Below, piece by piece: positions 21,458 through 39,663 of a stretch of DNA of 64,000 nucleotides. The notes beneath the pieces were generated by a model. The model saw nothing but the letters and a program-made list of their open reading frames with translations. It did not search any database and was not told the DNA's origin. The position numbers were made by a program, and so were the translations under genes. Source of the stretch: a virus; IMG/VR virus record IMGVR_UViG_3300020045_007008, positions 17,450 to 81,449 of that record; one strand, given 5' to 3'. The stretch's first letter is position 1. Each line of letters begins with the position of its first letter.

Positions 21458-22522
21458 ATGAAATTTAAAAAACAAGATTTAAAAAATATATTATCGATAG
21501 TTTGTCCTATTGCTAATAAAAATAATCTATTGCCGATATTGAGTAATATTTTTATCAAAGCAGAACAAGATAATATAAAATTTATTTCTAGCGATGGTGA
21601 AAATATAGTTGAATATACACAAGATGGCCAATATGAAACTGGTGAATATATAATTAATTCAAAGACATTTCAAGATTATATTAATCTAATAACAAGTGAT
21701 GATGTCGAATTAAATTTTAGTGAAAAATGTTCTATAAATAGTAAGACACATAAGACAACTATTAATTTACAGAATAATGAAAAATATCCAAATTTATTAG
21801 AAAAGACAAATGGATTTGAATATGAAATTGATAGAAAAGAATTAATGAATAGTATTTCACAAGTATTATTTGCATCATCAACTAGTGATATAAAAATAGA
21901 ATTATCTGGTGTAAATTTTAATTTCAAAGATATATTAATTTTAGCATCAAGTGATGGAATGCGATTAGCAGAAAAGAAAATAAATATAAGCGGTGATGAA
22001 TTAAATATTATAGCACCATCTAAACTTTTGAATATATTATTAAATATATTATCAAAAATAAATGATGATAAAATAAAAATTATTGCAAATCAAAATAGTA
22101 TTTCATTTAAATCTAATAATGCATATATTTCATCGAGATTAATAAATGGTGTTTTTCCAAATTATTCTCCACTAATATCGAAAGAATTTAAAACAAATAT
22201 TATTGTTGATAAGAATGATTTAATAAATACTATACAAACTAATGCATTATTTTCTTTAGATGGGACTATTAAATTAGATATAAATGAAAAATTATATATA
22301 GATACAGAATCATCGATGGGTAAAAATAAAAGTGAAATTGATATAATAAAAACAGGAGAAAATAATAATATAAAATTTAATTATTTATATTTATTAGAAA
22401 TAGTAGAAAATATAAAAAGTAATAGAATAATAATAGAAATGAATGATAGTAAATCGCCTGCTATTATTAAATCAGATATAGATGATAGATTTTTTTGTGT
22501 ATTAATGCCAATGAATCAATAA
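21458..22522 (+). CDS. dnaN: DNA polymerase III beta sliding clamp
   Basis: PILSNI, SDG.RLA, SRLING.FPNY, FN..YL and VLMPM C-terminal motifs; 354 aa. Confidence 0.92.
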   Translation: MKFKKQDLKNILSIVCPIANKNNLLPILSNIFIKAEQDNIKFISSDGENIVEYTQDGQYETGEYIINSKTFQDYINLITSDDVELNFSEKCSINSKTHKTTINLQNNEKYPNLLEKTNGFEYEIDRKELMNSISQVLFASSTSDIKIELSGVNFNFKDILILASSDGMRLAEKKINISGDELNIIAPSKLLNILLNILSKINDDKIKIIANQNSISFKSNNAYISSRLINGVFPNYSPLISKEFKTNIIVDKNDLINTIQTNALFSLDGTIKLDINEKLYIDTESSMGKNKSEIDIIKTGENNNIKFNYLYLLEIVENIKSNRIIIEMNDSKSPAIIKSDIDDRFFCVLMPMNQ

Positions 22523-22525
22523 TTT

Positions 22526-24730
22526 ATGAAATATATAAATGGTTACACATATAAGGACAAAATAATTCTCGAATACAAAGAAGATAATATAAAAAAACAA
22601 AAAGAAATAATAGATTTTAAATGGTATTTTTATATTAGAAAAGTTGATTTATTGAAAATAGATTTAGATAAAATGAAGTCTTGTGGAATGATAGATGATT
22701 ATATTATTGGAAATGAATATGTCAGATTATATTCTCAAAATTTAAATAATAACTACGAACAAGATGCAAAGAAAGCAGTTTTAGAATATTTAAAAAAAGA
22801 AAATATAGAAACATTCGAATCTGATTTTGATAGTTTAAAAAGATATTGCATTGATAATAGAATAGAAGTAGATGATGATTATGATATATTATATTTTGAT
22901 ATTGAAACTGATGATACAAATATTGGAATAAATATTGGTGCATATCCTATGTTAACAATGGGAGCAATTGATAATAAAGGTAATAAATTTTATTTTAATG
23001 ATAAAAATGAGAAAATTCTTTTACATAATTGTTTAGAATTATTTAAAAGATATGATATTATTGCAGGATGGAATAGTTCTGGATTTGATTTACCATATAT
23101 CAAAGAAAGGATGAAAGAATATAGATTACATTTCAATTGGGGAAGTGTTGCACATATTGATATGATGAAACGATTCATATCTCTCTTTAATCTACCTAAA
23201 AATTCATTAAATTATGTTGCTGAATATTTTTTAAATGCAAGTAAATTAGACCATAGTGGAAAAAGAATTATAGATATATATAATAAAGAACCGGAATTAT
23301 TGAAAGAATATAATATGCAAGATGTACAATTATTGAAAGATTTAGATGAAAAGGTCGATTGTTTTAAATTAATGATAAAAGAAGCAAAGTGGTGTAATAC
23401 TTTTATGAGTAATTTCTATGTTTCAGAATTATTAGATAATTATATTTTAAAGAATGCGAAAGAAAAGAATATTATATGCCCATCAAAAAAACAACAAGCA
23501 GATAATTTTCAATATGCTGGAGCAATAGTATTAGAACCTGACCGAGGATTATATGATGATGTATATGTATTTGATTTTAGTAGTCTATATCCTAGTATTA
23601 TAATGACATCAAATATTGGTTTTGATACATTGGATAAAAATGGACATATAAAGAACCCAGGCTCAGGATTTAGATTTTCAAATAAAAAGAAATCAATCAT
23701 AAAAGAAACTATTGAAGGAATGATAGGAAAAAGAAAAGAATATAAAGATAAAAAATTAAAGATGATTGAAGAAGGAAAAAATAAAGGACCAGAATTTGAA
23801 ACTATAGTTAGTAATGAATATGTTGTTAAAGCTCTTACTAATTCTATCTATGGTATAATGGGAATGCAAACAAGTAGATGGTATTCAGTTGAAATAGCAG
23901 AATCAATCACAAAAATGGGGCAATGGATAATTACATTTACATTAAATTATTTTAATTCAATTGGCTTTAAAGTAATCTATGGTGATACAGATTCACTATT
24001 TATCTGTGATAATGAAAATAAAGATATTAAAAATAAAATGGAAGATATTTTAAAAGAATATCATAGAGTTTTAGAAGATGAACTTAAACAATATGGAATT
24101 TTAGAATCACATATTCATTTAGAAGACGACAAAACATTTAGTAGATTTTTATTAGTTGATAAAAAAAATTATACTGGTATTGCTTCAAGCATAAACGGTA
24201 AAAAAACAAATGAACTATATACCAAAGGACTTGATTATATAAAAAGAAATACAATTAAATATGCAAGTAATAAACAAGAAAAATTAATTAAACATATTTT
24301 ATTTGATAATTATAATATTGATGATTGTATTTGGTTTATCGAAGAATGCCAAAGAGAAGTGATAGATGGTAAATTAGATATTGAAGATTTAATCATCAGA
24401 ATGAAAATAACAAAACAACCAAAGGAATATGCGTCAAAATTACCACACGTTATTATTGCCGAAAGAATTATAGAAAAGACTGGATATTTACAAAATTATG
24501 AAATTGAATATATTGTAAAAAATAGTGATATAAAAGAATATATAATGGTAGAAGAATATCAAGGCAAATATGATGAATATTTCTATTGGAATAATAGAAT
24601 TTATAATTTATTAAAAAGAATATGTAATGTTGCATTTCCTGATGAAGATTGGGAAAGATTTTATATGCAAAAAATAAGAGAAAGAGCAGGTAGAAAGAAA
24701 GAACAAAATCAATTATTTTTACAATTTTAA
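22526..24730 (+). CDS. polB: Family B DNA polymerase
   Basis: Exo DIET and GWNS.GFD; DFSSLYPSI; K...NSIYG; YGDTDS; KKNY; C-terminal QNQLF. Confidence 0.95.
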   Translation: MKYINGYTYKDKIILEYKEDNIKKQKEIIDFKWYFYIRKVDLLKIDLDKMKSCGMIDDYIIGNEYVRLYSQNLNNNYEQDAKKAVLEYLKKENIETFESDFDSLKRYCIDNRIEVDDDYDILYFDIETDDTNIGINIGAYPMLTMGAIDNKGNKFYFNDKNEKILLHNCLELFKRYDIIAGWNSSGFDLPYIKERMKEYRLHFNWGSVAHIDMMKRFISLFNLPKNSLNYVAEYFLNASKLDHSGKRIIDIYNKEPELLKEYNMQDVQLLKDLDEKVDCFKLMIKEAKWCNTFMSNFYVSELLDNYILKNAKEKNIICPSKKQQADNFQYAGAIVLEPDRGLYDDVYVFDFSSLYPSIIMTSNIGFDTLDKNGHIKNPGSGFRFSNKKKSIIKETIEGMIGKRKEYKDKKLKMIEEGKNKGPEFETIVSNEYVVKALTNSIYGIMGMQTSRWYSVEIAESITKMGQWIITFTLNYFNSIGFKVIYGDTDSLFICDNENKDIKNKMEDILKEYHRVLEDELKQYGILESHIHLEDDKTFSRFLLVDKKNYTGIASSINGKKTNELYTKGLDYIKRNTIKYASNKQEKLIKHILFDNYNIDDCIWFIEECQREVIDGKLDIEDLIIRMKITKQPKEYASKLPHVIIAERIIEKTGYLQNYEIEYIVKNSDIKEYIMVEEYQGKYDEYFYWNNRIYNLLKRICNVAFPDEDWERFYMQKIRERAGRKKEQNQLFLQF

Positions 24731-24740
24731 AAAATAAAAT

Positions 24741-24836
24741 TGTGGATAACTTTTCAGTACATTAAAATAATCACTAATATTAAAGTAAATTAAATACATT
24801 TTAATACTTGACCAATTCTATATAATATTATATAAT
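24741..24836 (+). promoter_or_regulatory. DnaA box + TCACTAATATTAAA + sigma70 promoter cassette
   Basis: TGTGGATAA at 24741, TCACTAATATTAAA at 24771, TTGACC 24808-17 nt-TATAAT. Confidence 0.8.
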
Positions 24837-24867
24837 TATAATATAAGAGATAAGTAATAAAAAATGT

Positions 24868-25611
24868 ATGAAAAAAATAACAAGAGCAACATTAAAAAGT
24901 TTTATCAAAAGAGAACACAAGAATAATAATTTATTTGTAAAGACTAAATCAAGTTTTGATGGTATGGTAGATTGTGTTATGGCTACTTCAGATGATTTTA
25001 GAAAAGTAGAAGAAATAAATTTTGATGATAGTCATACATTAGGTCTAAAAGGATTATGGTTAGTAGGAGAAAGTAGAGATTATATTACAGAATATTCAGA
25101 TGATAATTATATTGGATATTATATTTCTAATTGCTGTGGTTCGTCAATCGTAGCAATGAAAAGATTATTTTAAAATATAAAAATATGATAACTAAAGAAA
25201 AATTTTTATCTTATGAAGCGGTTAGAGAAGATGGAATGACAAATATGTTTGATATTAAAAAAGTGATAGAATTATCTGAAATATATTATGGAATAGAATT
25301 AACTAGAGAAGATATTACAGAAATAATGAAAAATTATAAAAAATTTAAAGAACAATATCTATAAAAATATGAAATTATATAAATTTATTAGACCCCAGAG
25401 TGAGCAAATTATAGAAGAAGTCAGAGCAGAAAATCATATTGAAGCAGTTCAAAAAGCAATTAGTCCAATGATAAATACCTCTACAGATTTTTATACTGAA
25501 GAATTAGATATTAGAGATGATGAATTTTTTAGAGAACTAGCCACAGATGCAATGTTAGAAATTGGATTGACAGAAGATGAATCAGAAAGAATGTTAGAAG
25601 ATTTATTATAA
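24868..25611 (+). other. Three small hypothetical proteins (24868-25173, 25185-25364, 25369-25611)
   Basis: Packed ORFs after the promoter. Confidence 0.6.
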
Positions 25612-25616
25612 AATAT

Positions 25617-26072
25617 ATGTATCAAAAAGATGTAATACAATTATATAAAGAATTAAGTAAAAAATATAATTGTGATTATAGACTTGAATTTAATAATAGA
25701 AAAACAGTTTTAGGCTCTTGCAATTATAATAAAAAAGTTATTTCATTATCTAAACCATATATAGAATCAAATAAAGATGAAGTAATTAAAAATACAATAT
25801 TACACGAAATAGCTCACGCATTGACAAAAAGTGGGCACGATAAAAAATGGAAATTAAAATACATAGAAATTGGTGGAAATGGAAATAGAGTAAATTATGA
25901 AGCAGTTATAAAATATAAATATATTGCTACCTGTCCTGAATGTGGATATGAAACTGAATATAATAAAAGACAAAGCGTAGCGTGCCATAAATGTTGTGTG
26001 AAATATAATAATGGTAAATTTTCAAATAAATATATTCTAATATTTACTGAAAATAAAAATATAAAGTTATGA
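25617..26072 (+). CDS. SprT-like zinc metalloprotease
   Basis: TILHEIAHAL...H...WK plus CPEC/CHKC. Confidence 0.85.
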   Translation: MYQKDVIQLYKELSKKYNCDYRLEFNNRKTVLGSCNYNKKVISLSKPYIESNKDEVIKNTILHEIAHALTKSGHDKKWKLKYIEIGGNGNRVNYEAVIKYKYIATCPECGYETEYNKRQSVACHKCCVKYNNGKFSNKYILIFTENKNIKL

Positions 26073-26596
26073 ATTATAATGAAAAAGATATAAGAGAATT
26101 TTTAAGTGAATCAAATAAGATAGAACGAGAATATTCAGAACAGGCATTTGAAGATGCAATTTTAGCTTGGAAATATGCATATAAATATGCGATACCGTTT
26201 AAAATTAAGGGACTTCAAAGTACAAAATATATTTTAAAAATACATAGATTATTATGTCAGAATATAAGACCAGATATCGCTGGTAAGTATAGAGATTGTG
26301 ATGTTTGGATAGGTGGAGAAATAAAAAGATTTATAAGCAGAAAATTTTTAGAAGATGTTACTCAAGGTTGGATTAATACTATAGATATAAATCAAACAAA
26401 AAAATTAACAAAAAAGAAAAAAGAAGAAAAAGTAAAAGAATGGCATATTGGATTTGAGAAATTGCACCCATTCGAAGATGGTAATGGCAGAACAGGAAGA
26501 ATATTATACAACATTCATAGATTATTATTAGATTTACCAATACATATAATTCATACTGGAGATGAACAGTTAAATTATTATCGATGGTTCAAATAA
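26069..26596 (+). CDS. Fic-domain protein (AMPylase-type)
   Basis: Canonical HPFEDGNGRTGR motif; ESN.IE N-terminal motif. Confidence 0.9.
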   Translation: MNYNEKDIREFLSESNKIEREYSEQAFEDAILAWKYAYKYAIPFKIKGLQSTKYILKIHRLLCQNIRPDIAGKYRDCDVWIGGEIKRFISRKFLEDVTQGWINTIDINQTKKLTKKKKEEKVKEWHIGFEKLHPFEDGNGRTGRILYNIHRLLLDLPIHIIHTGDEQLNYYRWFK

Positions 26597-27121
26597 ATGG
26601 ATAATAAAGTTTGGATTATAACCGATACACATTTCAATCACAGAAAGATGGTAGAATATTGTACTAGGCCAGAAAATTTTGATGAGCTTATTTGGAAAAG
26701 ATTGAAAATAATTAATGAAAATGATTTATTAATTCATTTAGGTGATATTTGTATTGGTAAAGATAATGAAGTTCACGCGCATCTAAATGGTTTATTAAGA
26801 TGTAAAAAAATATTAGTCAAAGGAAATCACGATAAGAATAGTAATAATTGGTATTTAAGAAATGGTTGGGATTTTGTTTGTAATACATTTAGTGATTATT
26901 ACTTTGGTAAGAATATATTATTTAGTCATATTCCACATAAAGATATTGGTTATGATATAAATATACACGGTCATTGTCATACTACACCGAGGACAAAAGA
27001 TAACAATCCCGATATGAATGATAAACAGATATTATTAGCTATTGAAAATACAAATTATCAACCAGTTTTATTGAATACTTTAATAAGTTCATATATTAAA
27101 AATTATGAAAATAGAAGATAA
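26597..27121 (+). CDS. Metallophosphoesterase
   Basis: DTHF.H, HLGD, GNHD, SH.P and HGH.H motifs. Confidence 0.85.
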   Translation: MDNKVWIITDTHFNHRKMVEYCTRPENFDELIWKRLKIINENDLLIHLGDICIGKDNEVHAHLNGLLRCKKILVKGNHDKNSNNWYLRNGWDFVCNTFSDYYFGKNILFSHIPHKDIGYDINIHGHCHTTPRTKDNNPDMNDKQILLAIENTNYQPVLLNTLISSYIKNYENRR

Positions 27122-27247
27122 GATAAAAGAAGAATTATTGAAATTGAAAATGAATAAAAATAATTTAGGATATCTTGGAGAATTATCAGAAAAGCATAAA
27201 GCAATAAATAGAACAATATATAAAGCTATAAAAATTATAGATAAGAT

Positions 27248-27871
27248 ATGTCAACAATCAAAACTAGAAAAGAAAAAGGAAAAAAATTAGAAAATTGGAT
27301 TTCAGATAGAATGATGGAAAAGAGATTAGGTATTGCAAGTAAATCTCCTGGAAGTGGAAGTGGTACAAGAGAAAAGGCAGATATAGTTAATTCAGTTATA
27401 ATAGTAGAAAGAGAAACAAAAGAAAAAAGAGGATTAGGTATAGAAGCAAAAAATCACAAAACACCACATATACGAGAATGGTGGGAACAAACATTGAAAT
27501 TAGAAACAGGAGATTCAAATAGAATTCCAGTACTAGTCTATAAATTAGAGGGAGAAAAATATTTTGATAGTAAAGCAGTTATAAGATTAGAAACATTTTT
27601 AGATTTAGTAAAAGATAATTGTGAGTTATATGGAAATTTAAAACAACTAACAGAACAATTAGATAAAAGTGAAGAATGGAAAAGTGAAAGTATGAAAAAT
27701 AAATTAAATAATTGTTTAAATATGATTGAACTTGGTAGAAATAAATTAATGAGTAATAGTAAAGTAGAAAAGATAGAAGATTGGAATAATTATAATATGC
27801 AGAATGGAAATGAATATCTTAAGAAATCCAAAACAATAATAAAAGACTGTATAAATTTAATTGAAAAATAA
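27248..27871 (+). CDS. Hjc-like Holliday junction resolvase
   Basis: KG..LE...GSG....ADI...IEAKN motif. Confidence 0.65.
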   Translation: MSTIKTRKEKGKKLENWISDRMMEKRLGIASKSPGSGSGTREKADIVNSVIIVERETKEKRGLGIEAKNHKTPHIREWWEQTLKLETGDSNRIPVLVYKLEGEKYFDSKAVIRLETFLDLVKDNCELYGNLKQLTEQLDKSEEWKSESMKNKLNNCLNMIELGRNKLMSNSKVEKIEDWNNYNMQNGNEYLKKSKTIIKDCINLIEK

Positions 27872-27999
27872 TATGAAAATAAATCTAAAGATTAGTTTCT
27901 TATTAGCGATGATATTATCTTGGTTTTTCTTTGATTGGAAAATAGCACTGATTGTTTCTTTATTTGTAATGGATTTTAAATATACTAATATAAAATAAT

Positions 28000-28687
28000 A
28001 TGACAAAGACATTAACAATAAATTTACCACAATCATTTGTTTCTGCTTTACATAGAAGACATCATGGAGTAGAACACACTGAAGAAGAAATACAGAAAAA
28101 ATTTAAACATATTACAGAATTATATAATGGTTATAAAAAATCGGTAAACAGTCTTAATAAATTATGGGAATTTTGGAATAGAGAAAATGTTGAGAGTTAT
28201 TTTAAAAGGCCAAAATGGTATAATGCACATTCGAGAAGAAGGAAATTAGAAGAAAAAATAAAAAGATATCATGAATATATGTTTAGCACATTGACTTCTT
28301 TTGATGGTAATAGTGGCCAATCATTTTCAACTTTTCATTGTATTTCGCCAGAAGAAATATATGAAGATTTTTTAAAAAAATATATAAAATAATATGACAG
28401 ATAAAATTTTATCTTTAGGGGTGATGTATTATGGAAAGGTTAAGATAATTAAGAGTAAAGATAATATAGAATTAGTTCAAATACCAGGACAAAGTTGGTC
28501 TAATCAAGGATTTAAACATTATTCAACACCATTATTTATCATACATAATAATAAAGAAGAATTATTTTCAGTTGAGTATGATAGAAAAACAAGAAAAGAA
28601 GCAATAAAAATTGCAGATTTACATTTTGATAAAATATTAAATAATATAAAATTTGATAGAAAAGTAATAGATTTAAAAAATTATTAA
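28000..28687 (+). other. Two hypothetical proteins (28000-28392, 28394-28687)
   Basis: Packed ORFs. Confidence 0.55.
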
Positions 28688-28691
28688 AAAT

Positions 28692-29981
28692 ATGTTAAGT
28701 ATCTCAAAAACAGCCAATTCAAATTATCTTGCTAAAATAGTAAAAATAAAGAATTTAAGAAAACATAATAATGCAGATAGACTACAAATAACAAGTATTG
28801 ATTTTCAAGATGTTATTGTTGGATTAGATGCAAAAGAAGGAGATATCTATTGTTTTTTTCCATTAGAGTGCCAAATAAATAAGAATTTTTTGTCATTTAC
28901 CAATTCATTTAGGCATAGTGAATTAAATCAAGATAAAGAAAAAGTTGGATTTTTTGAAGATAATTGTAGAGTACGAGCAGTAAAATTAAGAGGAGAAAAG
29001 TCAATGGGATATATAGTTCCAATTGAAGAATTAGAAAAATTCATTGGAAAAGATTTAAAAGATTATATTGATGAAGAATTTGATACTGTTGATAATATTT
29101 TATTATTACAAAAATACATAATAAAGACTAGAGAATCTAATATCACCAATGGTAAAGGAAGGAAGCTAAAAATATCAAGACTAGTAGAAGGACAAGTTAG
29201 ATTGCATGTTGATACTGAAAATTTAAGAAAGAATGCTTTTAAAATCAATCCAGAAGATGAAATTACTATTACATATAAAGTTCATGGGACATCTTGGTGG
29301 GTAAGTAATTTATTAGTAAAGAAAAAATTAAATTTATTTTATAAGTTTTTAAAACTAATTGGAATTAAAATTATAGATAAAGAATATGATTATATCTACG
29401 GTTCAAGAAAAGTCGTAAAAAATGAATATGAAACATCAGGAAAACAACATTTTTATGATACTGATATTTGGGGAGAAATAAAGGAAGAAATAAAAGAATT
29501 TATTCCAAAAGGATATACTATTTACGGTGAATGTTTAGGATATACAAAAAGTGGAAGTGAAATTCAAAGTAAATATGACTATGGTTGTAATGTAGGAGAA
29601 AAAAGAATTCAGATATATAGAATTACCTTTACTAATGAAGATGGAGTAGTTAATGATTTATCTTCAAAACAAATAAAAGAATTTTGCGATAGATTTGGAT
29701 TAGAATATGTACATATATTTTATATGGGATTAGCAGGAAACTTATATCCAGAATTAAACTTAAATGAACATTGGCAAGAAGAATTCATTAGAAGATTGGA
29801 GAAAGATTACAATGACAAAAATTGTTTTATGTGTAAAAATGAAGTACCAGAAGAAGGAATAGTATTGAGAAAAGAAACACTATTTTATTTTGAAGCATAT
29901 AAATTGAAGTCTTGGAAATTTCTTGAGTGGGAATCGAAGGAATTAGATAAAGGAGAAGTCGATATAGAAAGTAATAATTAA
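28692..29981 (+). CDS. RNA ligase (Rnl2/DRB0094-like, with N-terminal OB fold)
   Basis: H.NADRL OB fold, motif I KVHGTS, IYGE, EGIVLR and KLKS. Confidence 0.85.
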   Translation: MLSISKTANSNYLAKIVKIKNLRKHNNADRLQITSIDFQDVIVGLDAKEGDIYCFFPLECQINKNFLSFTNSFRHSELNQDKEKVGFFEDNCRVRAVKLRGEKSMGYIVPIEELEKFIGKDLKDYIDEEFDTVDNILLLQKYIIKTRESNITNGKGRKLKISRLVEGQVRLHVDTENLRKNAFKINPEDEITITYKVHGTSWWVSNLLVKKKLNLFYKFLKLIGIKIIDKEYDYIYGSRKVVKNEYETSGKQHFYDTDIWGEIKEEIKEFIPKGYTIYGECLGYTKSGSEIQSKYDYGCNVGEKRIQIYRITFTNEDGVVNDLSSKQIKEFCDRFGLEYVHIFYMGLAGNLYPELNLNEHWQEEFIRRLEKDYNDKNCFMCKNEVPEEGIVLRKETLFYFEAYKLKSWKFLEWESKELDKGEVDIESNN

Positions 29982-29999
29982 TAATTTAAAATTAATATT

Positions 30000-30341
30000 A
30001 TGAATATAAAAAATGGAGATGTGTGCTTTTCACTTGATGGAGAACATTTTAATGATGATTGGGAAAGAATAGAAGAATTAAAGAGTGGAGAAAAATATTA
30101 TAAAGCAATTACTAGAGAAATTAGATTAGAAGATTTAATTGATGTAGATAGTATATTGGAATATATGCAAGAAAGAGCGGGTGAAGAATGTGGTGATGCG
30201 TCAGAAGATTATCTTATGGATTTGTTTGGAAATCAAAAACATAAAGATGAGCTATTAGATTTAATATGTAATTGGTTTAAATTAAAAGAATATCAACCAA
30301 ATTTCTATGCTGTGGATGATATTGAGGAATTAATTAAATAA
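30000..30341 (+). CDS. Acidic hypothetical protein
   Basis: ORF in operon. Confidence 0.55.
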   Translation: MNIKNGDVCFSLDGEHFNDDWERIEELKSGEKYYKAITREIRLEDLIDVDSILEYMQERAGEECGDASEDYLMDLFGNQKHKDELLDLICNWFKLKEYQPNFYAVDDIEELIK

Positions 30342-30343
30342 AT

Positions 30344-30571
30344 ATGATTTATTTTTTCACATCAAAAAAAGATACAAATTGTAAATTAATGAAACCGATA
30401 ATAGATAGACTACAAAGAAAATACATTATTGAAATCATAGATATAGATGAACATAGAGAACTGGTTAAGAATTTTGAGATAAAAGAATTACCAACATTAG
30501 TAAAACGAAATGGTAGATTATTCGGTATAGCATCAAAACAAAAGATAGTAGAATTTTTAAATAGTAATTAA
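30344..30571 (+). CDS. Thioredoxin-like protein with degenerate active site (DTNC)
   Basis: F.....C..MKP.I...IDIDE...L...F.I..LPTL pattern. Confidence 0.7.
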   Translation: MIYFFTSKKDTNCKLMKPIIDRLQRKYIIEIIDIDEHRELVKNFEIKELPTLVKRNGRLFGIASKQKIVEFLNSN

Positions 30572-30847
30572 AAATATGAATTTATTAAAATGTATTATTG
30601 TAGGAATTATTCTTGATGTCTTAATGATATTATGGATTATTCATTTAGCAAATTAATATGAAAAAATTAATAGTATTTATTGTATTATTTTATCAGTTCG
30701 CCTCTGGTTATTGGATATTTGGGTTTTCTATCCCGCGAGTGACATCTATCGCTATAGACAGCAATGGTCAATGTGTAAAATGGGAAGGAGAACAAAGACA
30801 ATGTACTATTGACGAAATATATATGATGAATAATCTTTACAAATTAT

Positions 30848-31696
30848 ATGAAGAATAAAATATTAGTACTAAAAGGACTCCCAGCTTCAGGTAAAACGAC
30901 ATTTGCAAAAAAGTTGATTAATGAAGAAAAGAATTGGAAAAGAATAAATAAAGACGATTTAAGAGCAATGATTGATAATAATATTTGGAGTAAAGACAAT
31001 GAAAAACTTATCTTAAAAATAAGAGATAATATTATTATTGATTGTTTAGTAAATAAATATAATATTATTATTGATGATACTAATTTTGCAGAAAAACACA
31101 TTAATCGAATAAATGAAATTGCAGATAGACTTGACGTTGAAGTAGAAGAAAAGTTTTTCGATATTCCAGTAAATGAATGTATTAAAAGAGATTCGGAAAG
31201 ACCCAATCCAGTAGGAAAAAAAGTCATAATGAATATGTATAATACCTATTTAAAAAAAGAAATACCACCAGTAAAATGGATAAGTAAAAGAAGAACTGCT
31301 ATAATATGTGATATAGATGGTACATTGGCAAAAATGAAAAATAGAGGACCATTTGATTGGATGAAAGTAGAGAATGATGAATTAAATAAACCAGTTGCTG
31401 ATATATTAGAAAAATATCAAGATAGTGTAGATACAATTCTTTTAAGTGGTAGAGATGGAATATGTAGAGAACAAACAGAACAATGGTTAGCTGATAATAA
31501 TATAAAATATACTTGTCTTTTTATGAGAGATATTGATAATAATGAAAAAGATAGTATAATAAAAGAGAGAATATATAGAGAAAAAATAGAATCATTATAT
31601 AATATTTTATTTATTCTCGATGATAGGACTCAAGTAGTAGAGATGTGGCGTAATTTAGGATTAACTTGTTTTCAAGTAGCAAATGGCGATTTCTAA
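30848..31696 (+). CDS. pseT: Polynucleotide 5'-kinase/3'-phosphatase (T4 PseT-like)
   Basis: GLPASGKTT, N.DDLR, DDTN; HAD DIDGTLA, LSGR, DDR.QVV.MWR..GL. Confidence 0.92.
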   Translation: MKNKILVLKGLPASGKTTFAKKLINEEKNWKRINKDDLRAMIDNNIWSKDNEKLILKIRDNIIIDCLVNKYNIIIDDTNFAEKHINRINEIADRLDVEVEEKFFDIPVNECIKRDSERPNPVGKKVIMNMYNTYLKKEIPPVKWISKRRTAIICDIDGTLAKMKNRGPFDWMKVENDELNKPVADILEKYQDSVDTILLSGRDGICREQTEQWLADNNIKYTCLFMRDIDNNEKDSIIKERIYREKIESLYNILFILDDRTQVVEMWRNLGLTCFQVANGDF

Positions 31697-31697
31697 C

Positions 31698-31769
31698 GCC
31701 CAGGTGGCCAAATTGGCTAGGCGATAGACTGCAAATCTATTAATGGAGGTTCGAGTCCTCTCCTGGGCT
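31698..31769 (+). tRNA. tRNA-Cys (GCA)
   Basis: GCCCAGG/CCTGGGC acceptor; ATAGA-CTGCAAA-TCTAT anticodon arm; GGTTCGAGTCC T arm; no encoded CCA. Confidence 0.92.
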
Positions 31770-31937
31770 CAATATAATTAATAATATAAAAATATGCTTG
31801 TTCAATGTGAAGTTTGTAATAAATCATTTGATGCTAAAGATGATAGTATTCCAGTATGTGATGAATGTTTAGAGCTTAATTCAAGGGAGTATTGGGAGCA
31901 AGCACTATTTGATGAGTTTGATTATTAAATTTAACAT

Positions 31938-32442
31938 ATGAAAAAAATATTAATTATATTGACGATACTAGTAATATTATATTTACTATTAATACCAGTT
32001 AATGCGGACGAACCAAAACAAATGAATATTACTATTTCTGAATATCCAGAAAAGACATTAACAATATCACAGAGTTTTGAAATGACAGCTAATGTACCAA
32101 AAAGTGACTATTATAAATGTTTAGATGTTTGTTTCTGTGATGATAGCCCAGATATGGATGAAAAACAATGTAGGGATATTTGTAAAATTTATTGTTATAA
32201 TACTTATGTTAAATAATATGGCATTAACAGCCGAACAAAGATTAAGGGCAATAAGTAAAATAATTGAATCTGATATGGGATTTGAGGCTGATACATATTC
32301 ATTAAGAAAAAATAAAGACAAAGATGCTCAATTATTTGCTGATATGATAATGGAAGTATATATGATAGTTCATCCACATTTTGGATGTAAACACAATGAT
32401 TGGGATGATAATACATATAAATTATCTGAAGAATATGAATAA
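31938..32442 (+). other. Two hypothetical proteins (31938-32216 with signal peptide; 32218-32442)
   Basis: Packed ORFs. Confidence 0.5.
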
Positions 32443-33169
32443 CAACAAGATAGGTAAAATGAAAAAACAATTTATAGATATAATACCAGATGAATTAAAT
32501 ATCTGTCTATTGGGATTGCAAGGAAGTAGAGCATTAGGTATGGCTATGAATGAAGATGCTGATTATGATTATCGAGGTATATTTATAGAAGATAATAAAA
32601 AATTATTATCCCTAAGAAAGACAAAAGAAACTATTGATTTTGGTAGTTCAAAAGATGGTGAAGCAGAATTTGTTTTTCATGAAATTGGAAAGTTCTTCAA
32701 ATTAGCAATAGCTGGAAATCCAAATTTGATTAATTTATTATTTTTACCAGAATATAATTATTCAGATAATTATGGTAGAATGATAATTGCAAATAAAGAG
32801 TTATTTTTAAGTGAGAAGGCAATACGAAATTCATTTGGTGGATATGCATTTGGTCAGATGATGTATTTAAAAAGAAATCATAAATTTACTAAGAATAAAT
32901 CTATAGAAAGCAAAATAAAAAAACACATTAGACATTGCTTTTCTCTATTTGATATGGGAATAGAACTATTAGAAACAGCAAAAATAACATTTCCATTAGA
33001 GAATGCTAAAAAATATATTGAGATTGCAGAATGGAATGATGAAGATAGGTGGATGAAATTATTTGAGGAAACAAATGATAGATTTAACGATTGTAAATGT
33101 ATATTACCAAAAGAACCAAATATTTTATTATTAGAACATTTATTATTAAAAATTAGAGGGTTAGTGTAA
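32435..33169 (+). CDS. Pol-beta superfamily nucleotidyltransferase (RlaP/YcgL-like)
   Basis: GSRA.G......DYDYRGIF...E..KF..L...GNPN....LF motifs. Confidence 0.85.
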   Translation: MNNNKIGKMKKQFIDIIPDELNICLLGLQGSRALGMAMNEDADYDYRGIFIEDNKKLLSLRKTKETIDFGSSKDGEAEFVFHEIGKFFKLAIAGNPNLINLLFLPEYNYSDNYGRMIIANKELFLSEKAIRNSFGGYAFGQMMYLKRNHKFTKNKSIESKIKKHIRHCFSLFDMGIELLETAKITFPLENAKKYIEIAEWNDEDRWMKLFEETNDRFNDCKCILPKEPNILLLEHLLLKIRGLV

Positions 33170-33225
33170 TGGTAACACGATGGTCTCCAAAACCATAATT
33201 TAGAGTTCGAATCTCTAGCCTTCTG
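33155..33225 (+). tRNA. tRNA-Trp (CCA)
   Basis: AGAGGGT/GCCTTCT acceptor; ATGGT-CTCCAAA-ACCAT anticodon arm; TAGAG-TTCGAAT-CTCTA T arm; overlaps the upstream stop codon. Confidence 0.88.
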
Positions 33226-33794
33226 CATTTAATAAAAATATATTATAAATGCGTAAATTAACTAAAAAACAAAGAGAAAAATTAGCATATTCTCATCAAG
33301 TATTTTATAATGAAACTGGGACACATATCACAATAGAAATTGATAATGCAATAAGAAAAATATTAGGATATGAAATCCCATCTAATAGTGTAAGAATGTG
33401 GAAAATAAAATTATGAAAGAAAATACATATCAAGAATATAACAATTATAAAATATATCTCAATAATTGGGAAGAGTATTGTGTATGTGATTTACATGGAA
33501 ATTTAATAGAATGGAATTCGAGTTTCAGGACACTTAAAGAAGCAAAAGATTATATTGATAAAATATTAAATTAATATTATGTTTGATAAAAAAGAAAAAC
33601 ACTTATTAATAGCACTAGTTGAAGCACAAAAATCAACAGTTAGTTTATTAAGAGGATTTCGAAAACCAAATAGAGAAGAGCAAGATGAAAATGCTTATTA
33701 TAATAGAATAATTGAAAAATTAAATAAATTTTAATAATAAAGAAGAACCGAAACAATTAGCAGATAAAATTAATATTGAAGAGAAAAAATAGTT

Positions 33795-34142
33795 ATGGAT
33801 ATACAAAAATTTATAGAAAAAAGAAAAGAAGATGGACAGAATAGTTTTAGAGATAAATGTCTTGTCATTGGTGTAGATATGGATGGAGTATTATGTAGTG
33901 GAGAATTATGGGAAGGAGAAAATAGTGAACCAAAACCAATACAAGAAAATATAGATAAAATAAATGAATTAAGTAAAACTAATTTTATAGTAATTCATAC
34001 AGCAAGAAGAAAAGAATCGGCAACAAAAACAATAAATTGGCTCAATAAATATCAAGTGGTATATCATGCAATTAGATTTGATAAAATGCCAGCTGATTTA
34101 TATATAGATGATAAAGCATTTAACTTTGATATCTATGAATAA
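33795..34142 (+). CDS. Small HAD-superfamily phosphatase
   Basis: DMDGVL, HTAR, K..ADLYIDDKA. Confidence 0.8.
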   Translation: MDIQKFIEKRKEDGQNSFRDKCLVIGVDMDGVLCSGELWEGENSEPKPIQENIDKINELSKTNFIVIHTARRKESATKTINWLNKYQVVYHAIRFDKMPADLYIDDKAFNFDIYE

Positions 34143-34303
34143 AAATTTAGAAATAGTACAATCAAAATCAAAAGAAATTGGACATTGCGTTTGTTCAAAA
34201 TGTTTTACTTGCCCCTGTAATTATTTTACTCAATATAATTTATGTAAATGTGCAGGGGATAAAATAAATCAAGAAGAGTGGCTAAAATTTAATTTAAATA
34301 AAA

Positions 34304-34696
34304 ATGAATACATTTGAATTAGGTAAGAAAGGCGAACAAATTATTTATCAGTTATTTAAAAATAAAAAATATCAAATTCAATCACCAGACTTTTTTGTAT
34401 ACAGCAAAGAAATAGATAAATATATATGTATTGAAGTTAAATTTAAAAATAATCAATTTAAATCTCAATATTTTAATGGTTATGGAATAAATAAAAATCA
34501 AATATATTTAAGAAATAAACTATTTGAAAAAACAAATATAAGAACATTCATAATAATAGTTGATAATACGATAAAAAATATTTATGGTCAATATTTAGAT
34601 ATATTACAGAAAGGAAAATTTATAAATACAAAAGATACTACAATATATGATTTAAATAGCTATTTATTAATAAAAAAAGGTATTGACTTTTTTTAA
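34304..34696 (+). CDS. PD-(D/E)XK nuclease-like protein
   Basis: G..GE...PDF...IEVK motif. Confidence 0.6.
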   Translation: MNTFELGKKGEQIIYQLFKNKKYQIQSPDFFVYSKEIDKYICIEVKFKNNQFKSQYFNGYGINKNQIYLRNKLFEKTNIRTFIIIVDNTIKNIYGQYLDILQKGKFINTKDTTIYDLNSYLLIKKGIDFF

Positions 34697-34711
34697 ATAA
34701 TACTATATAAT
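34683..34711 (+). promoter_or_regulatory. sigma70-type promoter of the 7-deazaguanine operon
   Basis: TTGACT-17 nt-TATAAT, 26 nt before queD. Confidence 0.8.
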
Positions 34712-34737
34712 AATATTATAATTAAAAGAATAAAAAT

Positions 34738-35145
34738 ATGCACATATTGAGATTAAAACACCATTTCGATGCGGCTCATCGATTAGAATTTCATAGTGGA
34801 TTATGCTCGAACCTCCATGGCCACCGCTGGGATGTAGAAGTATTAATACGAAAAAATGAATTAGATAAAAATAAATTAGTAGTTGATTTCGGAGATATTA
34901 AAAAAATAATTAATGAGTTCGACCATAAGACTATTTTAAAAAATTGTGAAGAAAATCAAAAATTAATAGATGTTATTTTCGAGATGGGATGTGCTTATAT
35001 TTTATTAGGTGATTCACCTACTGCAGAAAATATTGCACAAGTATTAACAAATAGAATTAATGAAGAATTACAAATATCAAATACAGAAGTTATTGTTTGG
35101 GAATCACCAGAAGCATCAATTGAATATTATAATAATGAAATATAA
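34738..35145 (+). CDS. queD: 6-carboxytetrahydropterin synthase
   Basis: FDAAHRL...C.NLHGH.W; DF..IK; DH..L; PTAENIA; WES. Confidence 0.93.
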   Translation: MHILRLKHHFDAAHRLEFHSGLCSNLHGHRWDVEVLIRKNELDKNKLVVDFGDIKKIINEFDHKTILKNCEENQKLIDVIFEMGCAYILLGDSPTAENIAQVLTNRINEELQISNTEVIVWESPEASIEYYNNEI

Positions 35146-35149
35146 AAAT

Positions 35150-35800
35150 ATGATAAAAGTAAATATCAATGAAGCATTTCATTCTATTCAAGGAGAAGGT
35201 GCAACAATAGGGCATCCAATATTGTTTATTAGATTAGCAGGATGTAATTTACATTGTTTGTTCTGTGATACTCAATACCATACTAATATTAATTATAATG
35301 AGATAAATGATGAGTTAGATAAATTATTAAGAAAACATAAATCATGGTGCATTACTGGTGGTGAGCCATTATTACAGCAAGATAAAATCCTAGAACTTAT
35401 TAGAGAATATGACCCAGAATGGGTAGAAATAGAAACTAATGGTACAATAAAACCATCTGATGAATTATTAGAAATTATTAGTCAATGGAATATAAGTCCT
35501 AAAAATCCAGAACAAAACGAAGTGAAAAATATTGAATATAAATTTTTAGATAGTTTAGCATATAATATTAATTATATAATTAAATTTGTATATACAGATA
35601 AACAAGATGAAAATTTTATTGAGACAATGATAGATAATTATTATATAGATGAAAATAGAGTATTTATAATGACAGAAGGTGCAACAAAAAAAGAGCAAGA
35701 GCACAATATGCCAAATGTAATAGAGTATTGTTTAAAAAATGAATTTAATTTTAGTCCCAGGCTACATGTGTTGCTCTGGAACAATAGACAAGGAGTATGA
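35150..35800 (+). CDS. queE: 7-carboxy-7-deazaguanine synthase (radical SAM)
   Basis: SIQGEG, RLAGCNLHCLFCDT, TGGEP, ETNG, SPK and RLH motifs. Confidence 0.93.
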   Translation: MIKVNINEAFHSIQGEGATIGHPILFIRLAGCNLHCLFCDTQYHTNINYNEINDELDKLLRKHKSWCITGGEPLLQQDKILELIREYDPEWVEIETNGTIKPSDELLEIISQWNISPKNPEQNEVKNIEYKFLDSLAYNINYIIKFVYTDKQDENFIETMIDNYYIDENRVFIMTEGATKKEQEHNMPNVIEYCLKNEFNFSPRLHVLLWNNRQGV

Positions 35801-36279
35801 TTGTAACATATAAACAAATAATAAAAGACTCAATTGAGTTAGCAAATCACATTAAAAACAATTATGTTAATAGAGCAAAAGAGTATAAAGCAATCCATGG
35901 TATCCCAGCTGGCGGAATAGCAACTGCAGTTGTAATGGCTCATGTATTGAATATTGATAATATTCTAAGTGCTGAAGATTATAAAAATTATGAAAATAAA
36001 TCAGAAGTATTAGTAGTAGATGATTTAGTAGACAGTGGTGCAACATTAAAAAAGTTTTCAGAATCAGATTGTGCTGTAGTATATAAAAAACCACATTCAC
36101 CTCAACCAACATATTACTATAAAGATATTGAAAGTGGTTGGGTAGAATTTCCACACGAAAAGGACAAAGCAGGTATTCTTGACCATATTATAAGAGTATT
36201 CTCTTATATTGATGTTCAATTATCAGATGAGGAACAGCAATTAGTTATACAATTACTTAATAAAATAAAGAATAAATAA
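35797..36279 (+). CDS. Type I phosphoribosyltransferase (Gpt-like)
   Basis: GIP.GG, PRPP loop VVDDLVDSGAT, WVEFP.E. Confidence 0.85.
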   Translation: MIVTYKQIIKDSIELANHIKNNYVNRAKEYKAIHGIPAGGIATAVVMAHVLNIDNILSAEDYKNYENKSEVLVVDDLVDSGATLKKFSESDCAVVYKKPHSPQPTYYYKDIESGWVEFPHEKDKAGILDHIIRVFSYIDVQLSDEEQQLVIQLLNKIKNK

Positions 36280-36338
36280 TTAATATAGAGTTATAAAATT
36301 AGACTTATCTTTTTACTACTTTTCCTCTATTCAAAAAA

Positions 36339-37085
36339 ATGAAAAAAAAGATTGTTATTATTTCTGGAGGAATGGATTCAACTACACTGCTATATGATGT
36401 AGTGAATCAATTCTCATCAGAAAATGTGATTGCTTTAACATTTTTCTATGGTTCAAAACATAATGACCAAGAAATAAAGAGAGCAAAAATTAGTTGTCAA
36501 AAATTAAATGTTGAGCATAAATTATTTGATTTATCGTCAATATTTCAAAATTTTAACTCATCATTATTAAAAAAAGAAGACAGTGAAATAATACCAGAGG
36601 GGCATTATGCAGAAGACAATATGAAAAAAACGGTTGTCCCATATCGAAATGGTATATTATTATCTATTGCAATTGGATTTGCTGAAGATTTAGATTGTGA
36701 TTCAGTATATTATGGTGCTCACGCTGGTGACCATACTATTTATCCAGATTGTCGAGATGAGTTTGTGAAAGCATTTTCATTAGCATCAATATTAGGTACA
36801 TATAATAGAGTGAAAGTAATTGCAAGTTATGAAAATATTGATAAATATGGAATTCTACAGATAGGAAAAAAATTAAATATTAATTATATTGATACTTGGA
36901 CGTGTTATAATGGAGAAGAAGCACCTTGCGGAAAATGTGGAAGTTGTACAGAAAGAGCTGAAGCATTCTATAAAATGAATATGAAAGACCCATTATATAC
37001 AGATAAACAATGGCAAGATGTATTATTAAATCTTAAAAAATTAAACATAATTGATAATACCAATTATCAACCTGAATTATTATGA
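36339..37085 (+). CDS. queC: 7-cyano-7-deazaguanine synthase
   Basis: SGGMDS, VP.RN, H.GD..IYPDCR, TWTCY...CGKCGSC.ER. Confidence 0.95.
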   Translation: MKKKIVIISGGMDSTTLLYDVVNQFSSENVIALTFFYGSKHNDQEIKRAKISCQKLNVEHKLFDLSSIFQNFNSSLLKKEDSEIIPEGHYAEDNMKKTVVPYRNGILLSIAIGFAEDLDCDSVYYGAHAGDHTIYPDCRDEFVKAFSLASILGTYNRVKVIASYENIDKYGILQIGKKLNINYIDTWTCYNGEEAPCGKCGSCTERAEAFYKMNMKDPLYTDKQWQDVLLNLKKLNIIDNTNYQPELL

Positions 37086-37669
37086 GAAATAAAGAAAAAT
37101 TAGAACAAATTTCAAAATCTCTAATAGAAGAAATCGGAGAAAAATCAGACAGACAAGGATTAATTGGTACACCAGATAGAATGGCAAGAATGTTTTTAGA
37201 AGTTTTTAGAGGATATGATGAAACACAAAAACCCAAAATAACAACATTTAAAAATGGAACTGATGGAATAGTATATGACCAAATTATTACTGATACGGGT
37301 TCATATTATTCATATTGTGAACATCATATGGTACCATTCTTCGGTCAATATTGGTTTGCATATATTCCACACCCAGACGGAAAAATTTTAGGATTAAGTA
37401 AAGTTGCAAGAATCGTTGATTATTATTCGGCTAAAATGCAAATACAGGAAAGATTAGTTCAAGATATCGTGAATAATCTATGGAGTGCTTTAATAGATAG
37501 TAATAGAATTGAACCTATAGGAATGGCTTTGGTAATGAAAGGTGAACATTTATGTAAATCAATGCGTGGTGTGAAAAAAAGAGGAACAATGACGACATCT
37601 GATTTGAGGGGTTGTTTTAAAACTGAAGCTGATACAAGAAAAGAATTTTTTGACTTGATAAAATTATGA
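37082..37669 (+). CDS. folE: GTP cyclohydrolase I
   Basis: GL..TP.R, CEHH..PF.G, GLSK..R, QERL, H.C..MRG. Confidence 0.95.
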   Translation: MRNKEKLEQISKSLIEEIGEKSDRQGLIGTPDRMARMFLEVFRGYDETQKPKITTFKNGTDGIVYDQIITDTGSYYSYCEHHMVPFFGQYWFAYIPHPDGKILGLSKVARIVDYYSAKMQIQERLVQDIVNNLWSALIDSNRIEPIGMALVMKGEHLCKSMRGVKKRGTMTTSDLRGCFKTEADTRKEFFDLIKL

Positions 37670-38160
37670 AAGAAAAATTAGAGAAATTATTACAACAAAT
37701 AAAAGAAAGAAAAGGTGGTGCTGATTCATCAAAATCACATTTAAAGAGTGCATTATATGATTGGAGAATTGAAGATAACTGGTCTAGAAATAATTGCTTT
37801 GTAATAAGTGAAAATGATTTGGGATTTGCATTTTATACATTCACGATACGAGAGCCTAGACACTGCACATTAAGACATATATTCACATTAGAAGAAGCAA
37901 GAGGTCAAGGAATTGGAAAGAAACTAATGAATAGAATTGAAGAGCATATGAAGAGAGATAGAGTTGAGATAATGCGATTTTATGCAAATAAGCCAGCTAT
38001 TAAATTCTATGAAAAATTAGGATATACTTGGCTCGGTGAAAATAAACAAGGATTGCCATTCACATATTGTGATATATGTACAAAGAAGAATATTAATAAT
38101 CAACAACAATTGAAAAAAATATTCAAAATTTATAATCAAAATAATTTATTTAATATCTAA
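37666..38160 (+). CDS. GNAT-family N-acyltransferase
   Basis: Acetyl-CoA motif RGQGIGKKL and N.PAIKFYEKLGY; C-terminal QNNLF. Confidence 0.85.
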   Translation: MKEKLEKLLQQIKERKGGADSSKSHLKSALYDWRIEDNWSRNNCFVISENDLGFAFYTFTIREPRHCTLRHIFTLEEARGQGIGKKLMNRIEEHMKRDRVEIMRFYANKPAIKFYEKLGYTWLGENKQGLPFTYCDICTKKNINNQQQLKKIFKIYNQNNLFNI

Positions 38161-38165
38161 ATTTT

Positions 38166-38645
38166 ATGTCAGATACAAAAAGTTTAAAATCATTAGGTTC
38201 TAAATCAACAAAATATGAATGTAATGGTGTCAATCCAGAATTATTGGAAGTATTTGAAAATCAACACCAAAAAAATAATTATTTAATACCATTTATTCAA
38301 CCAAGAGATGAATTTACTTCATTATGTCCTAAGACTGGGCAACCCGACCACGCCGCTTTAGAAATTATATATATACCGAGAGAAGATTGTGTAGAATCAA
38401 AATCATTAAAGCTTTATTTAGTATCTTTTCGAAATAGCGGAGAATTTCACGAAGATGTCTGTAATAGAATAGCAGATGATTTAATTAGATTATTAAATCC
38501 TAAATATCTCAGAGTATATGGTGATTTTGCACCAAGAGGCAGTTTAGCAATAAAACCACTTATTGAACGATGGAATATAGAAGAAGGTATAGAAAAACAA
38601 GATATAAAATTTTTAATTAATTCTTGGGATTTAAAGAAAAAATAA
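38166..38645 (+). CDS. queF: NADPH-dependent preQ0 reductase (unimodular)
   Basis: EFTSLCPKTGQPD, intact QueF motif ESKSLKLYL, FHE and PRG. Confidence 0.92.
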   Translation: MSDTKSLKSLGSKSTKYECNGVNPELLEVFENQHQKNNYLIPFIQPRDEFTSLCPKTGQPDHAALEIIYIPREDCVESKSLKLYLVSFRNSGEFHEDVCNRIADDLIRLLNPKYLRVYGDFAPRGSLAIKPLIERWNIEEGIEKQDIKFLINSWDLKKK

Positions 38646-38646
38646 A

Positions 38647-39663
38647 ATGAATAGTTTAAAAGATTTTAATTTATTTTATGCAGTTAGTGGACGAATGTTC
38701 TTAGAATATCTTCTTATCTGTAATGTTAAAAATATTCTTATTTCTTTTGCTTATTTAGACCCGTGGTCAATGAGTAATATAATGAAGCACAATAATATAA
38801 ATTTAATTTGTGATTCTGGTGCATTTACTGCTTGGAATTTAAGTCAAAAATATAAAAAGAAGGGCGACCCGAATTGGCAAAAATATTTAGTTGATATTGA
38901 TGCATATGTTGAATTTCTGAATAAACATAAAGATATAATTTATAGAGCAGTAAATATTGATGTCATCCCAGGTGAACAAGGTATAGAACCAACAGAGGAG
39001 CAAATAATTGAAGCGGCAGAGCAAGGGTGGAAAAATTATCAATATTTAAAAAGCAAAGGATTTGATACAATTCACGTATTTCATCAAGGTGAGCCAGATT
39101 GGGTTCTAGATAGAATGTTGAAAGAATGTGATTATATTGGAATAAGTCCAAGTAATGACTATAGCACAAAGAGAAAAAGATTGTGGATGGATAGAATTTT
39201 TAAATATATTGCTGATTCTAATAACCCAAAAATAAAAACTCACGGATTTGCTGTAACAAGTGAAGAATTAATGAATAATTATCCTTGGTTTTCAGTTGAC
39301 TCAAGTAGCTGGTGTCTAAGTGCCGCGATGGGAAAAGTAAGAACAAAATATGGTGAGTTATATGTAAGTGATAGGGGAAAATATGGAGATGATAATATTT
39401 TTTCAAAAACAGGTGAAGTGAGAAAAGAATTAGATAAATACTTCATAGAAAAAATTGGATATAATATATCAGCATTAGCAGGTGAACCAGAAAAAATAAT
39501 TAAGAAATGTGAATGTGGAATCGAAAATGAAATCGAGATACCGTGCAGTCAATATAAGACAAGAACATTAGCGAATATATTATATAATTTAGAATTTGAA
39601 GAAAAGAGACGAGCAAGCGGACCGAATTTGAATTTTATGAATCAAAATAAATTATTTGAATAA
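38647..39663 (+). CDS. dpdA: DpdA-like DNA transglycosylase (TGT-fold)
   Basis: DSGAFTAW, D.IPG, HVFHQGE, YIGIS, HGF, SVDSSSW; last gene of the preQ operon; C-terminal QNKLF. Confidence 0.75.
   Translation: MNSLKDFNLFYAVSGRMFLEYLLICNVKNILISFAYLDPWSMSNIMKHNNINLICDSGAFTAWNLSQKYKKKGDPNWQKYLVDIDAYVEFLNKHKDIIYRAVNIDVIPGEQGIEPTEEQIIEAAEQGWKNYQYLKSKGFDTIHVFHQGEPDWVLDRMLKECDYIGISPSNDYSTKRKRLWMDRIFKYIADSNNPKIKTHGFAVTSEELMNNYPWFSVDSSSWCLSAAMGKVRTKYGELYVSDRGKYGDDNIFSKTGEVRKELDKYFIEKIGYNISALAGEPEKIIKKCECGIENEIEIPCSQYKTRTLANILYNLEFEEKRRASGPNLNFMNQNKLFE

Follow-up and report, generated by a model that had tools for sequence, protein, structure and literature searches.

The recruitment of DNA-modifying enzymes to a bacteriophage replication clamp is considered here for a stretch of 64,000 nucleotides (the window), which constitutes the 3′ 64 kb of the 81,449-base IMG/VR virus record IMGVR_UViG_3300020045_007008 (positions 17,450 to 81,449); coordinates are window positions unless a locus identifier is given. 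A DpdA-type DNA guanine transglycosylase of 338 amino acids (aa; 38647–39663, + strand), which is predicted from the adjoining genes of the preQ pathway to insert 7-deazaguanine into DNA, ends in a peptide that, judged by its conservation among relatives and its modelled docking into the pocket of a sliding clamp, strongly appears to behave like a real clamp-binding motif. DpdA would be a new client of a well-known clamp-docking mechanism, with a testable consequence for phage DNA modification. Taken as a whole, the observations are best explained, with somewhat better than even confidence, by the docking of the family B DNA polymerase PolB and of DpdA, and with lower confidence of a GNAT acetyltransferase, on the clamp and by a base modification that is linked to replication; the phage DNA would thus probably be modified while it is being copied.

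According to this explanation, the phage's own family B polymerase would be held by its C-terminal QLFLxF peptide on a clamp of the bacterial beta type, the phage's own DnaN. [quoted passage not shown] Equally, the GNAT may, at lower confidence, reach the same platform by an acquired near-identical tail (NQNNLF versus NQNKLF) and act on the inserted base in DNA. Co-replicational recruitment of base exchange and acylation enzymes had been put forward in the first-pass annotation of the window; this proposal is partly supported, strongly by the tails of PolB and DpdA, which are conserved and, in the case of DpdA, modelled in the clamp pocket, weakly by that of the GNAT, which is unconserved, and not by that of QueC.

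The C-terminal peptide of DpdA

The DpdA of the window matches phrog_887 (2.3e-54) and no Pfam family at an E value of 0.01 or better. Its AlphaFold2 model (mean predicted local distance difference test score, pLDDT, of 91.5) has the fold of a tRNA-guanine transglycosylase (TGT), with Foldseek matches to such enzymes at a probability of 1.00 and a template modelling score of about 0.55. The protein ends ...FMNQNKLFE, with QNKLF encoded at 39643–39657. A search of 5.8 billion proteins delivered 636 matches, the best 120 of which were analysed; from these, 42 full-length relatives (P0002–P0044 minus the truncated P0023) with 45–58% identity to the window DpdA were aligned with it to a set of 43 sequences. 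Throughout this alignment Q333 is invariant, while L336 and F330 are conserved to at least 90%. The pattern Q..[LM][FLI] occurs within the last eight residues of 34 of the 42 relatives, 28 of them showing an exact Q..L[FL] end, and the eight misses are near variants, namely QQTIF, QLIFNI, QGVLNI, QHTLNI, QQTLTL and QSTLQF as well as two proteins with the motif followed by an extension. As controls, the same tail was found in 7 of 627 other open reading frames (ORFs) of at least 100 aa from 80 metagenome loci and in none of 150 DnaN homologues. The conservation among DpdA homologues on which the first-pass annotation had made its proposal dependent is consequently in place, and the DpdA tail is rather likely to be a working clamp hook, as far as alignment and modelling can indicate.

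That the peptide merely has a hook-like appearance and serves a different purpose, for instance in contacts within the dimer or with a partner, in folding, in turnover or in packaging, is considered improbable. TGT-family enzymes act as dimers, which counts in its favour, as does the mean pLDDT of 77 for the last eight DpdA residues, which are therefore not clearly disordered, a point that speaks against a hook. Among the more distant of the best 120 matches, the tail is present in only 2 of 76, and distant clades possess other conserved tails, for example RGV.W or GF.L, unlike the classical clamp motif. Against such a purpose, the motif is located at the extreme C-terminus, after a Gly-Pro break that follows the last long helix (302–324), and belongs to the same class as the motif of the polymerase family; moreover, the tail is placed in the clamp pocket by a complex model (below), and dnaN resides by or near dpdA in the Streptococcus phages MS1 and Dp-1 and in Escherichia phage CAjan.

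The sliding clamp and its modelled complex with DpdA

That the phage encodes its own DnaN next to polB, as first annotated, is borne out: the dnaN gene (354 aa; 21458–22522, + strand) is followed by polB from 22526 and encodes a three-domain beta clamp, with PF00712, PF02767 and PF02768 all over their cut-offs, a phrog_947 match at 6.5e-55 and an end-to-end alignment with solved beta clamps (PDB matches down to 2.3e-26). Three segments of DnaN, namely DG.RLA, FP.Y and the C-terminal MPM, presumably match what forms the peptide pocket in the Escherichia coli clamp, and the pocket of the phage protein looks intact at the level of the sequence.

The complex was modelled from two copies of DnaN (99-row alignment) and DpdA residues 305–338 (43-row alignment). 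The tail was placed in the clamp pocket with scores of 0.61, 0.61 and 0.62, compared to 0.01 for the best of three controls, on a scale where 58 of 80 complexes of solved structure, as against 2 of 110 mismatched pairs, attain the mark; the structure prediction suggested along with the original observation thereby came out in its favour and supports a predicted binding of DpdA to the clamp. At least 67% of the contacts are common to the runs, with a partner pLDDT of 42–49. In the model, confident contacts are formed by DpdA residues 329 and 332–337 with DnaN residues 146, 165, 167–170, 234, 236, 239, 268–270, 308, 332, 334, 348 and 350–353. Among these, DnaN 165, 169, 170, 234, 236, 308, 334, 350 and 351 represent nearly invariant columns in the 99 clamps; DG(M)RLA and the C-terminal MPM, both equally nearly invariant, are among the segments contacted. 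Of the 20 DnaN contact residues, 16 are identical in the clamp of a sister phage, a syntenic 27.9-kb fragment with proteins 66–82% identical. Weighing against the proposed docking, the pass may mirror mere likeness to the many solved clamp-peptide complexes, the input alignments lie outside the calibration of the tool with an uncertain fold of the partner, and the model covers the DpdA tail alone.

The polymerase tail and the frequency of the motif

The family B polymerase (734 aa; 22526–24730, + strand; PF00136 at 2.3e-60 plus exonuclease domains) ends ...KKEQNQLFLQF, with QNQLF at 24704–24718 and QLFLQF at 24710–24727. Four relatives with 80–82% identity, one of them from the sister phage, end NQLFLDF, NQLFLEF, NQLFLDF and NQLFLNF, and in these relatives the upstream Q of the window's QNQLF is replaced by K, T or E. 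The conserved unit of PolB is thus, on strong alignment evidence, NQLFLxF or QLFLxF, seemingly a hexapeptide-type motif in a register other than QNQLF. As the upstream Q varies in close relatives, the QNxLF ending that the first-pass annotation had described as shared by PolB, the GNAT and DpdA is partly a coincidence of register: the likeness of the PolB and DpdA tails to clamp motifs stands, the common QNQLF-type register of PolB does not. Of the 42 nearest PolB homologues, 24 have Q..[LM][FLI] at the end, with QLSLF, QLTLF and QQPLF as frequent forms, and therefore the PolB family appears routinely to be a C-terminal clamp client, while a PIP-like (PCNA-interacting peptide) end Q..L..[FWY][FWYL] occurs instead in 6 of 119 PolB homologues. 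The aromatic pair of the PIP box (Q-x-x-[LIM]-x-x-[FWY]-[FWY]) is absent from the PolB, GNAT and DpdA tails, the clamp itself being of the beta type. The consensus Q-x-x-L-(x)-F or QLxLx[LF] is fitted by QNKLF of DpdA, QNNLF of the GNAT and QLFLQF of PolB.

The endings first reported for PolB, GNAT, DpdA and QueC were confirmed exactly and at the genes named. The background was assessed in 152 greedy non-overlapping ORFs of at least 40 aa from the whole 81,449-base genome. There are seven instances of Q..LF in total, three of them within the last ten residues (PolB, GNAT, DpdA); the remaining four are internal or N-terminal, so that the initial impression of no further listed protein with such an ending was correct. 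With tails randomly drawn for each protein from its own amino acid composition in 20000 trials, a terminal Q..LF is expected by chance in a mean of 0.15 ORFs, compared to the three observed, and at least three were reached in 10 of 20000 trials. The narrower QN.LF is present three times in the genome, always terminally, a count reached in 0 of 20000 random-tail trials. These figures overstate the significance because the pattern was chosen post hoc, which makes conservation a better test than rarity. Two features of the material are unfavourable to the proposed explanation in this respect, the definition of the motif pattern only once the data had been seen and the AT-richness of the genome (about 26% G+C in the 81,449-base record), which renders codons for N, Q, K, L and F common. 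Equally, the 17 of 18 bases that are identical between the DpdA and GNAT tails prove nothing, as they are explained by codon bias; for the same reason, they speak neither for nor against a recent duplication of the tail at the DNA level.

Two further occurrences were discarded. An N-terminal QKLLF of QueE, at position 9, falls within a stretch shared with queD and probably 5′ of the real start. An internal NQLELFF at residues 34–40 of a RecE-like protein is uninformative: it is retained as NQLEIFY in the sister phage, but within an N-terminus that is about 77% identical throughout.

The tails of the acetyltransferase and of QueC

The GNAT (164 aa; 37666–38160, + strand; PF00583 at 9.7e-16) ends ...IYNQNNLFNI, with QNNLF at 38137–38151, and matches the tail of the neighbouring DpdA at N-Q-N-x-L-F. 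In its AlphaFold2 model (mean pLDDT 93) the last five residues, 160–164, have a pLDDT below 50 and are modelled as disordered. When 51 sequences are aligned, the core of the family is seen to end near residue 141, and most members stop 8–20 residues short of the end of the window GNAT. Adverse to a role of this tail on the clamp, the motif is present in none of 56 homologues with 47–60% identity; of the closest two, P0122 stops ahead of the motif and P0123 has FPNNTFDLK at this place, and one homologue derives from a phage record of 33.5 kb that has a completeness rating of 100% and yielded no DpdA. The window GNAT thus belongs to a family of GNATs that is general among phages, with a tail that is new here. 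In a distant metagenome locus, L106:6959–9475, the genes likewise follow one another as FolE-GNAT-QueF-DpdA; its GNAT is 31.5% identical and ends KPLFSQF. This order bears on the idea of an acylated deazaguanine. Of the other 124 DpdA loci, L106 is the only one in which a GNAT was observed beside DpdA.

The possibility that the clients of the clamp are confined to PolB and DpdA, while the endings of the GNAT and of QueC are accidents of an AT-rich genome and the GNAT acts on the free base or on a substrate other than DNA, is held to be unlikely, yet deserves serious consideration. It is favoured by the absence of the motif from all GNAT homologues, by the presence of the family in phages without DpdA and by the isolated position of L106, with its different tail, among the DpdA loci. 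It is opposed by the exclusively terminal QN.LF, never reached three times by random tails, by the nature of the GNAT tail as an added extension with disordered end that repeats the hexapeptide of its neighbour and by the gene order retained in L106. On balance, the GNAT tail is given a little less than an even chance of being a clamp hook, and, on thin evidence, the window GNAT can be viewed as a plausible member of the pathway and client of the clamp. The original identification of its tail as a clamp motif thus stands with respect to presence and terminal position and falls short with respect to conservation. Equally, DNA as the substrate of the GNAT, for which the tail had been taken as independent support, is retained as a lead only, because the motif is missing in the 56 homologues and the family occurs in a phage without DpdA.

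QueC (36339–37085, + strand; PF06508 at 5.1e-58) ends ...YQPELL (QPELL region 37068–37082), which had been annotated as a weaker version of the motif. A relaxed pattern that admits QueC, Q..[LMIV][FLMWY], is seen four times in the genome and was reached in 1941 of 20000 random-tail trials, so that QueC adds nothing to the argument; its assignment to accident gains accordingly. As this pattern is no rarer than chance and the tails differ in sibling clusters, QueC was rejected as a fourth clamp client, and a clamp hook at its end would be very improbable from sequence comparison.

Related phages and the question of the host clamp

Three IMG/VR records with a DpdA of the same clade and with the same tail have only the deazaguanine module in common with this phage. 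These fragments are 59–86% complete, and no DnaN, PolB or PolA was found in them, by a search that in the case of PolB did recover the gene of the sister phage; equally, no DnaN was found in five related records searched, all of them fragments. As relatives that bear the motif show no clamp within such fragments, the DpdA hook does not seem to depend on a phage clamp, and the restriction of modification to phage DNA by way of the phage's own clamp, as initially suggested, is not upheld. Most simply, the DpdA tail would be a generic beta-clamp hook that would fit the host clamp too. In those tailed relatives the host clamp would then be the target, which is the point in favour of yet another explanation, a host takeover in which abundant hook-bearing phage proteins occupy the host clamp and halt host replication and repair, with tethering being incidental. 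This is regarded as hardly credible: the carriers are all enzymes that act on DNA and gain from sitting on it, and the phage possesses its own clamp with a conserved pocket.

The sister phage, from the assembled 27.9-kb fragment of which the deazaguanine cluster is absent, encodes between dnaN and polB a 729-aa fusion of an SNF2 helicase with an N6_N4 DNA methylase (L055:4029–6218, IMG/VR record G006) that ends KKQQTLF. Among homologues of this fusion above 500 aa in 80 viral loci, 36 of 63 show a looser version of the motif, Q..[LMIF][FLMIWY], within the last eight residues, with NQISLF, RQLSLF and NQITLF as frequent tails. A tail of this kind is thus also borne by a second type of DNA-modifying enzyme, unrelated to the first.

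Among cultured phages, no close relatives were detected by megablast, and the best tblastn match of DpdA is 33% identical. In Streptococcus phage MS1, DpdA ends KQNRLF and dnaN is the next gene; in Streptococcus phage Dp-1, DpdA ends RQRRLF with dnaN three genes downstream; and in Escherichia phage CAjan, DpdA ends RVMELF and lies two genes before a gene annotated as 'DNA polymerase protein beta subunit' (loci L222, L224 and L225 for these three phages). The DpdA of Bacillus phage Flasso ends SQGKLF. Dp-1 DNA is described in PMC6884629 to contain dPreQ1 at about 1.7% of G, which together with the tails in Dp-1 and MS1 provides a tractable cultured test system.

A protein of about 190 aa that is encoded within sibling deazaguanine clusters ends Q..[LF][ILV] (QPKLIN, QQKML, QPSLI, QPSFV). 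It is present in five full copies (L064:1475–2050, L065:7008–7586, L069:4651–5226, L070:6921–7505 and L072:8394–8960) and one fragment at a contig edge. Neither a Pfam or PHROG family nor a match in cultured phages was found for it, and its sole atlas lead, to PDDEXK_14, has a score of 0.95 with 163–168 shared features, under the guide value of 170.

Genomic context

Nearly every gene of the record is on the + strand. The replication block at 16.9–24.7 kb begins with a fusion of a primase-polymerase and a DnaB-type helicase (16909–18435), followed by the RecE-like protein, a weak match (18733–19671; phrog_434 at 4.9e-4), and an SMC/RecF-type ATPase (20206–21447; AAA_23, AAA_15; phrog_1499) directly 5′ of dnaN, a position reminiscent of the bacterial dnaN-recF neighbourhood. 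A clamp-loader gene was not recognised among the window genes scanned for Pfam families.

The 7-deazaguanine cluster at 34.7–39.7 kb comprises, in this order and all on the + strand, QueD of the 6-pyruvoyl-tetrahydropterin synthase family (34738–35145; PF01242 at 3.3e-29), a QueE-like radical SAM enzyme (35135–35800; phrog_2076 at 1.1e-54), a phosphoribosyltransferase-like protein (35797–36279; phrog_8995 at 1.6e-09, PF00156 under its cut-off), QueC, the GTP cyclohydrolase I FolE (37082–37669; PF01227 at 3.1e-50), the GNAT, the preQ0 reductase QueF (38166–38645; PF14489 at 1e-29) and DpdA. For QueE, the longest ORF runs from 35060 and the phrog alignment begins at residue 30; upon inspection of the candidate starts, 35135 or 35150 is the likely one. 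The phosphoribosyltransferase-like gene has a 55% identical copy in L001. Between the two blocks, an RNA-repair set at 28692–33169 consists of an RNA-ligase-like protein, a polynucleotide kinase-phosphatase and a nucleotidyltransferase of the RlaP family; the RNA-ligase homologue of the sister phage is in two pieces flanking a 253-aa ORF.

Relation to known systems and implications

Bacterial clamp clients carry a QL[SD]LF pentapeptide or a QLxLxL hexapeptide, as do E. coli Pol II and Pol IV at their C-termini. The system of the window resembles these clients in its short terminal Q...L.F peptide, its family B polymerase as a carrier, its three-domain DnaN and the modelled docking; it differs in that the base-exchange enzyme DpdA, and perhaps the GNAT, takes the place of replication and repair proteins and in that position 2 of the motif is N here and L in the bacterial consensus. 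In eukaryotes, DNMT1 is recruited to PCNA via a PIP box. This is likewise a DNA-modifying enzyme tethered to a replication clamp by a short peptide, but of PIP-box type and devoted to maintenance methylation, whereas the tails of the window are devoid of the aromatic pair.

The nearest precedent is found in phage T4, where the alpha-glucosyltransferase was once reportedly proposed to bind the gp45 clamp. This enzyme is not known to have a defined linear clamp motif. The idea is the same, a DNA-hypermodifying enzyme riding the clamp during replication, although gp45 is PCNA-like, unlike the beta-type DnaN here. The literature also holds points that weigh against replication-linked modification: the T4 interaction was, according to a 2025 preprint (10.64898/2025.12.06.692756), not reproduced in vitro or in vivo; deazaguanine insertion is termed post-replicative in PMC10516641; and in PMC6884629 and PMC10516641 the word 'clamp' occurs 0 times, as does 'acetyl' in PMC10516641. 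The phage deazaguanine systems described there (Hutinet 2019, PMC6884629; Cui 2023, PMC10516641) likewise comprise FolE, QueD, QueE, QueC, QueF and a DpdA of TGT fold. Among the sources considered, including PMC7824862, no link of DpdA or deazaguanine to a sliding clamp was found, and equally nothing that connects a clamp-binding motif with phage methyltransferases.

A wider proposition, to which we attach slightly less than even weight, is that DNA modification in phages is organised quite generally by clamp docking, a principle not described so far, whereby unrelated enzymes would each have gained a C-terminal hook that couples hypermodification to the replication fork. Its members might be DpdA, including that of Dp-1, MS1 and Flasso, the SNF2-helicase/methylase fusions, a GNAT that acylates dPreQ1 in DNA and the protein of about 190 aa. 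If this were true, the strength of the hook would help to set how fully a genome is modified, with modification levels stated to range from <0.1% to all guanines in PMC10516641.

The proposed docking of DpdA bears on how this enzyme finds its DNA substrate, on why modification levels vary and on whether insertion is tied to replication. If the tail of the GNAT is real, it would argue that the extra acyl step takes place on DNA. If the DpdA hook is real, deazaguanine insertion would shift from a 'post-replicative' to a 'replication-coupled' process and, should the pattern extend to the methylase fusions, a clamp hook may serve as a marker for unknown phage DNA-modifying enzymes.

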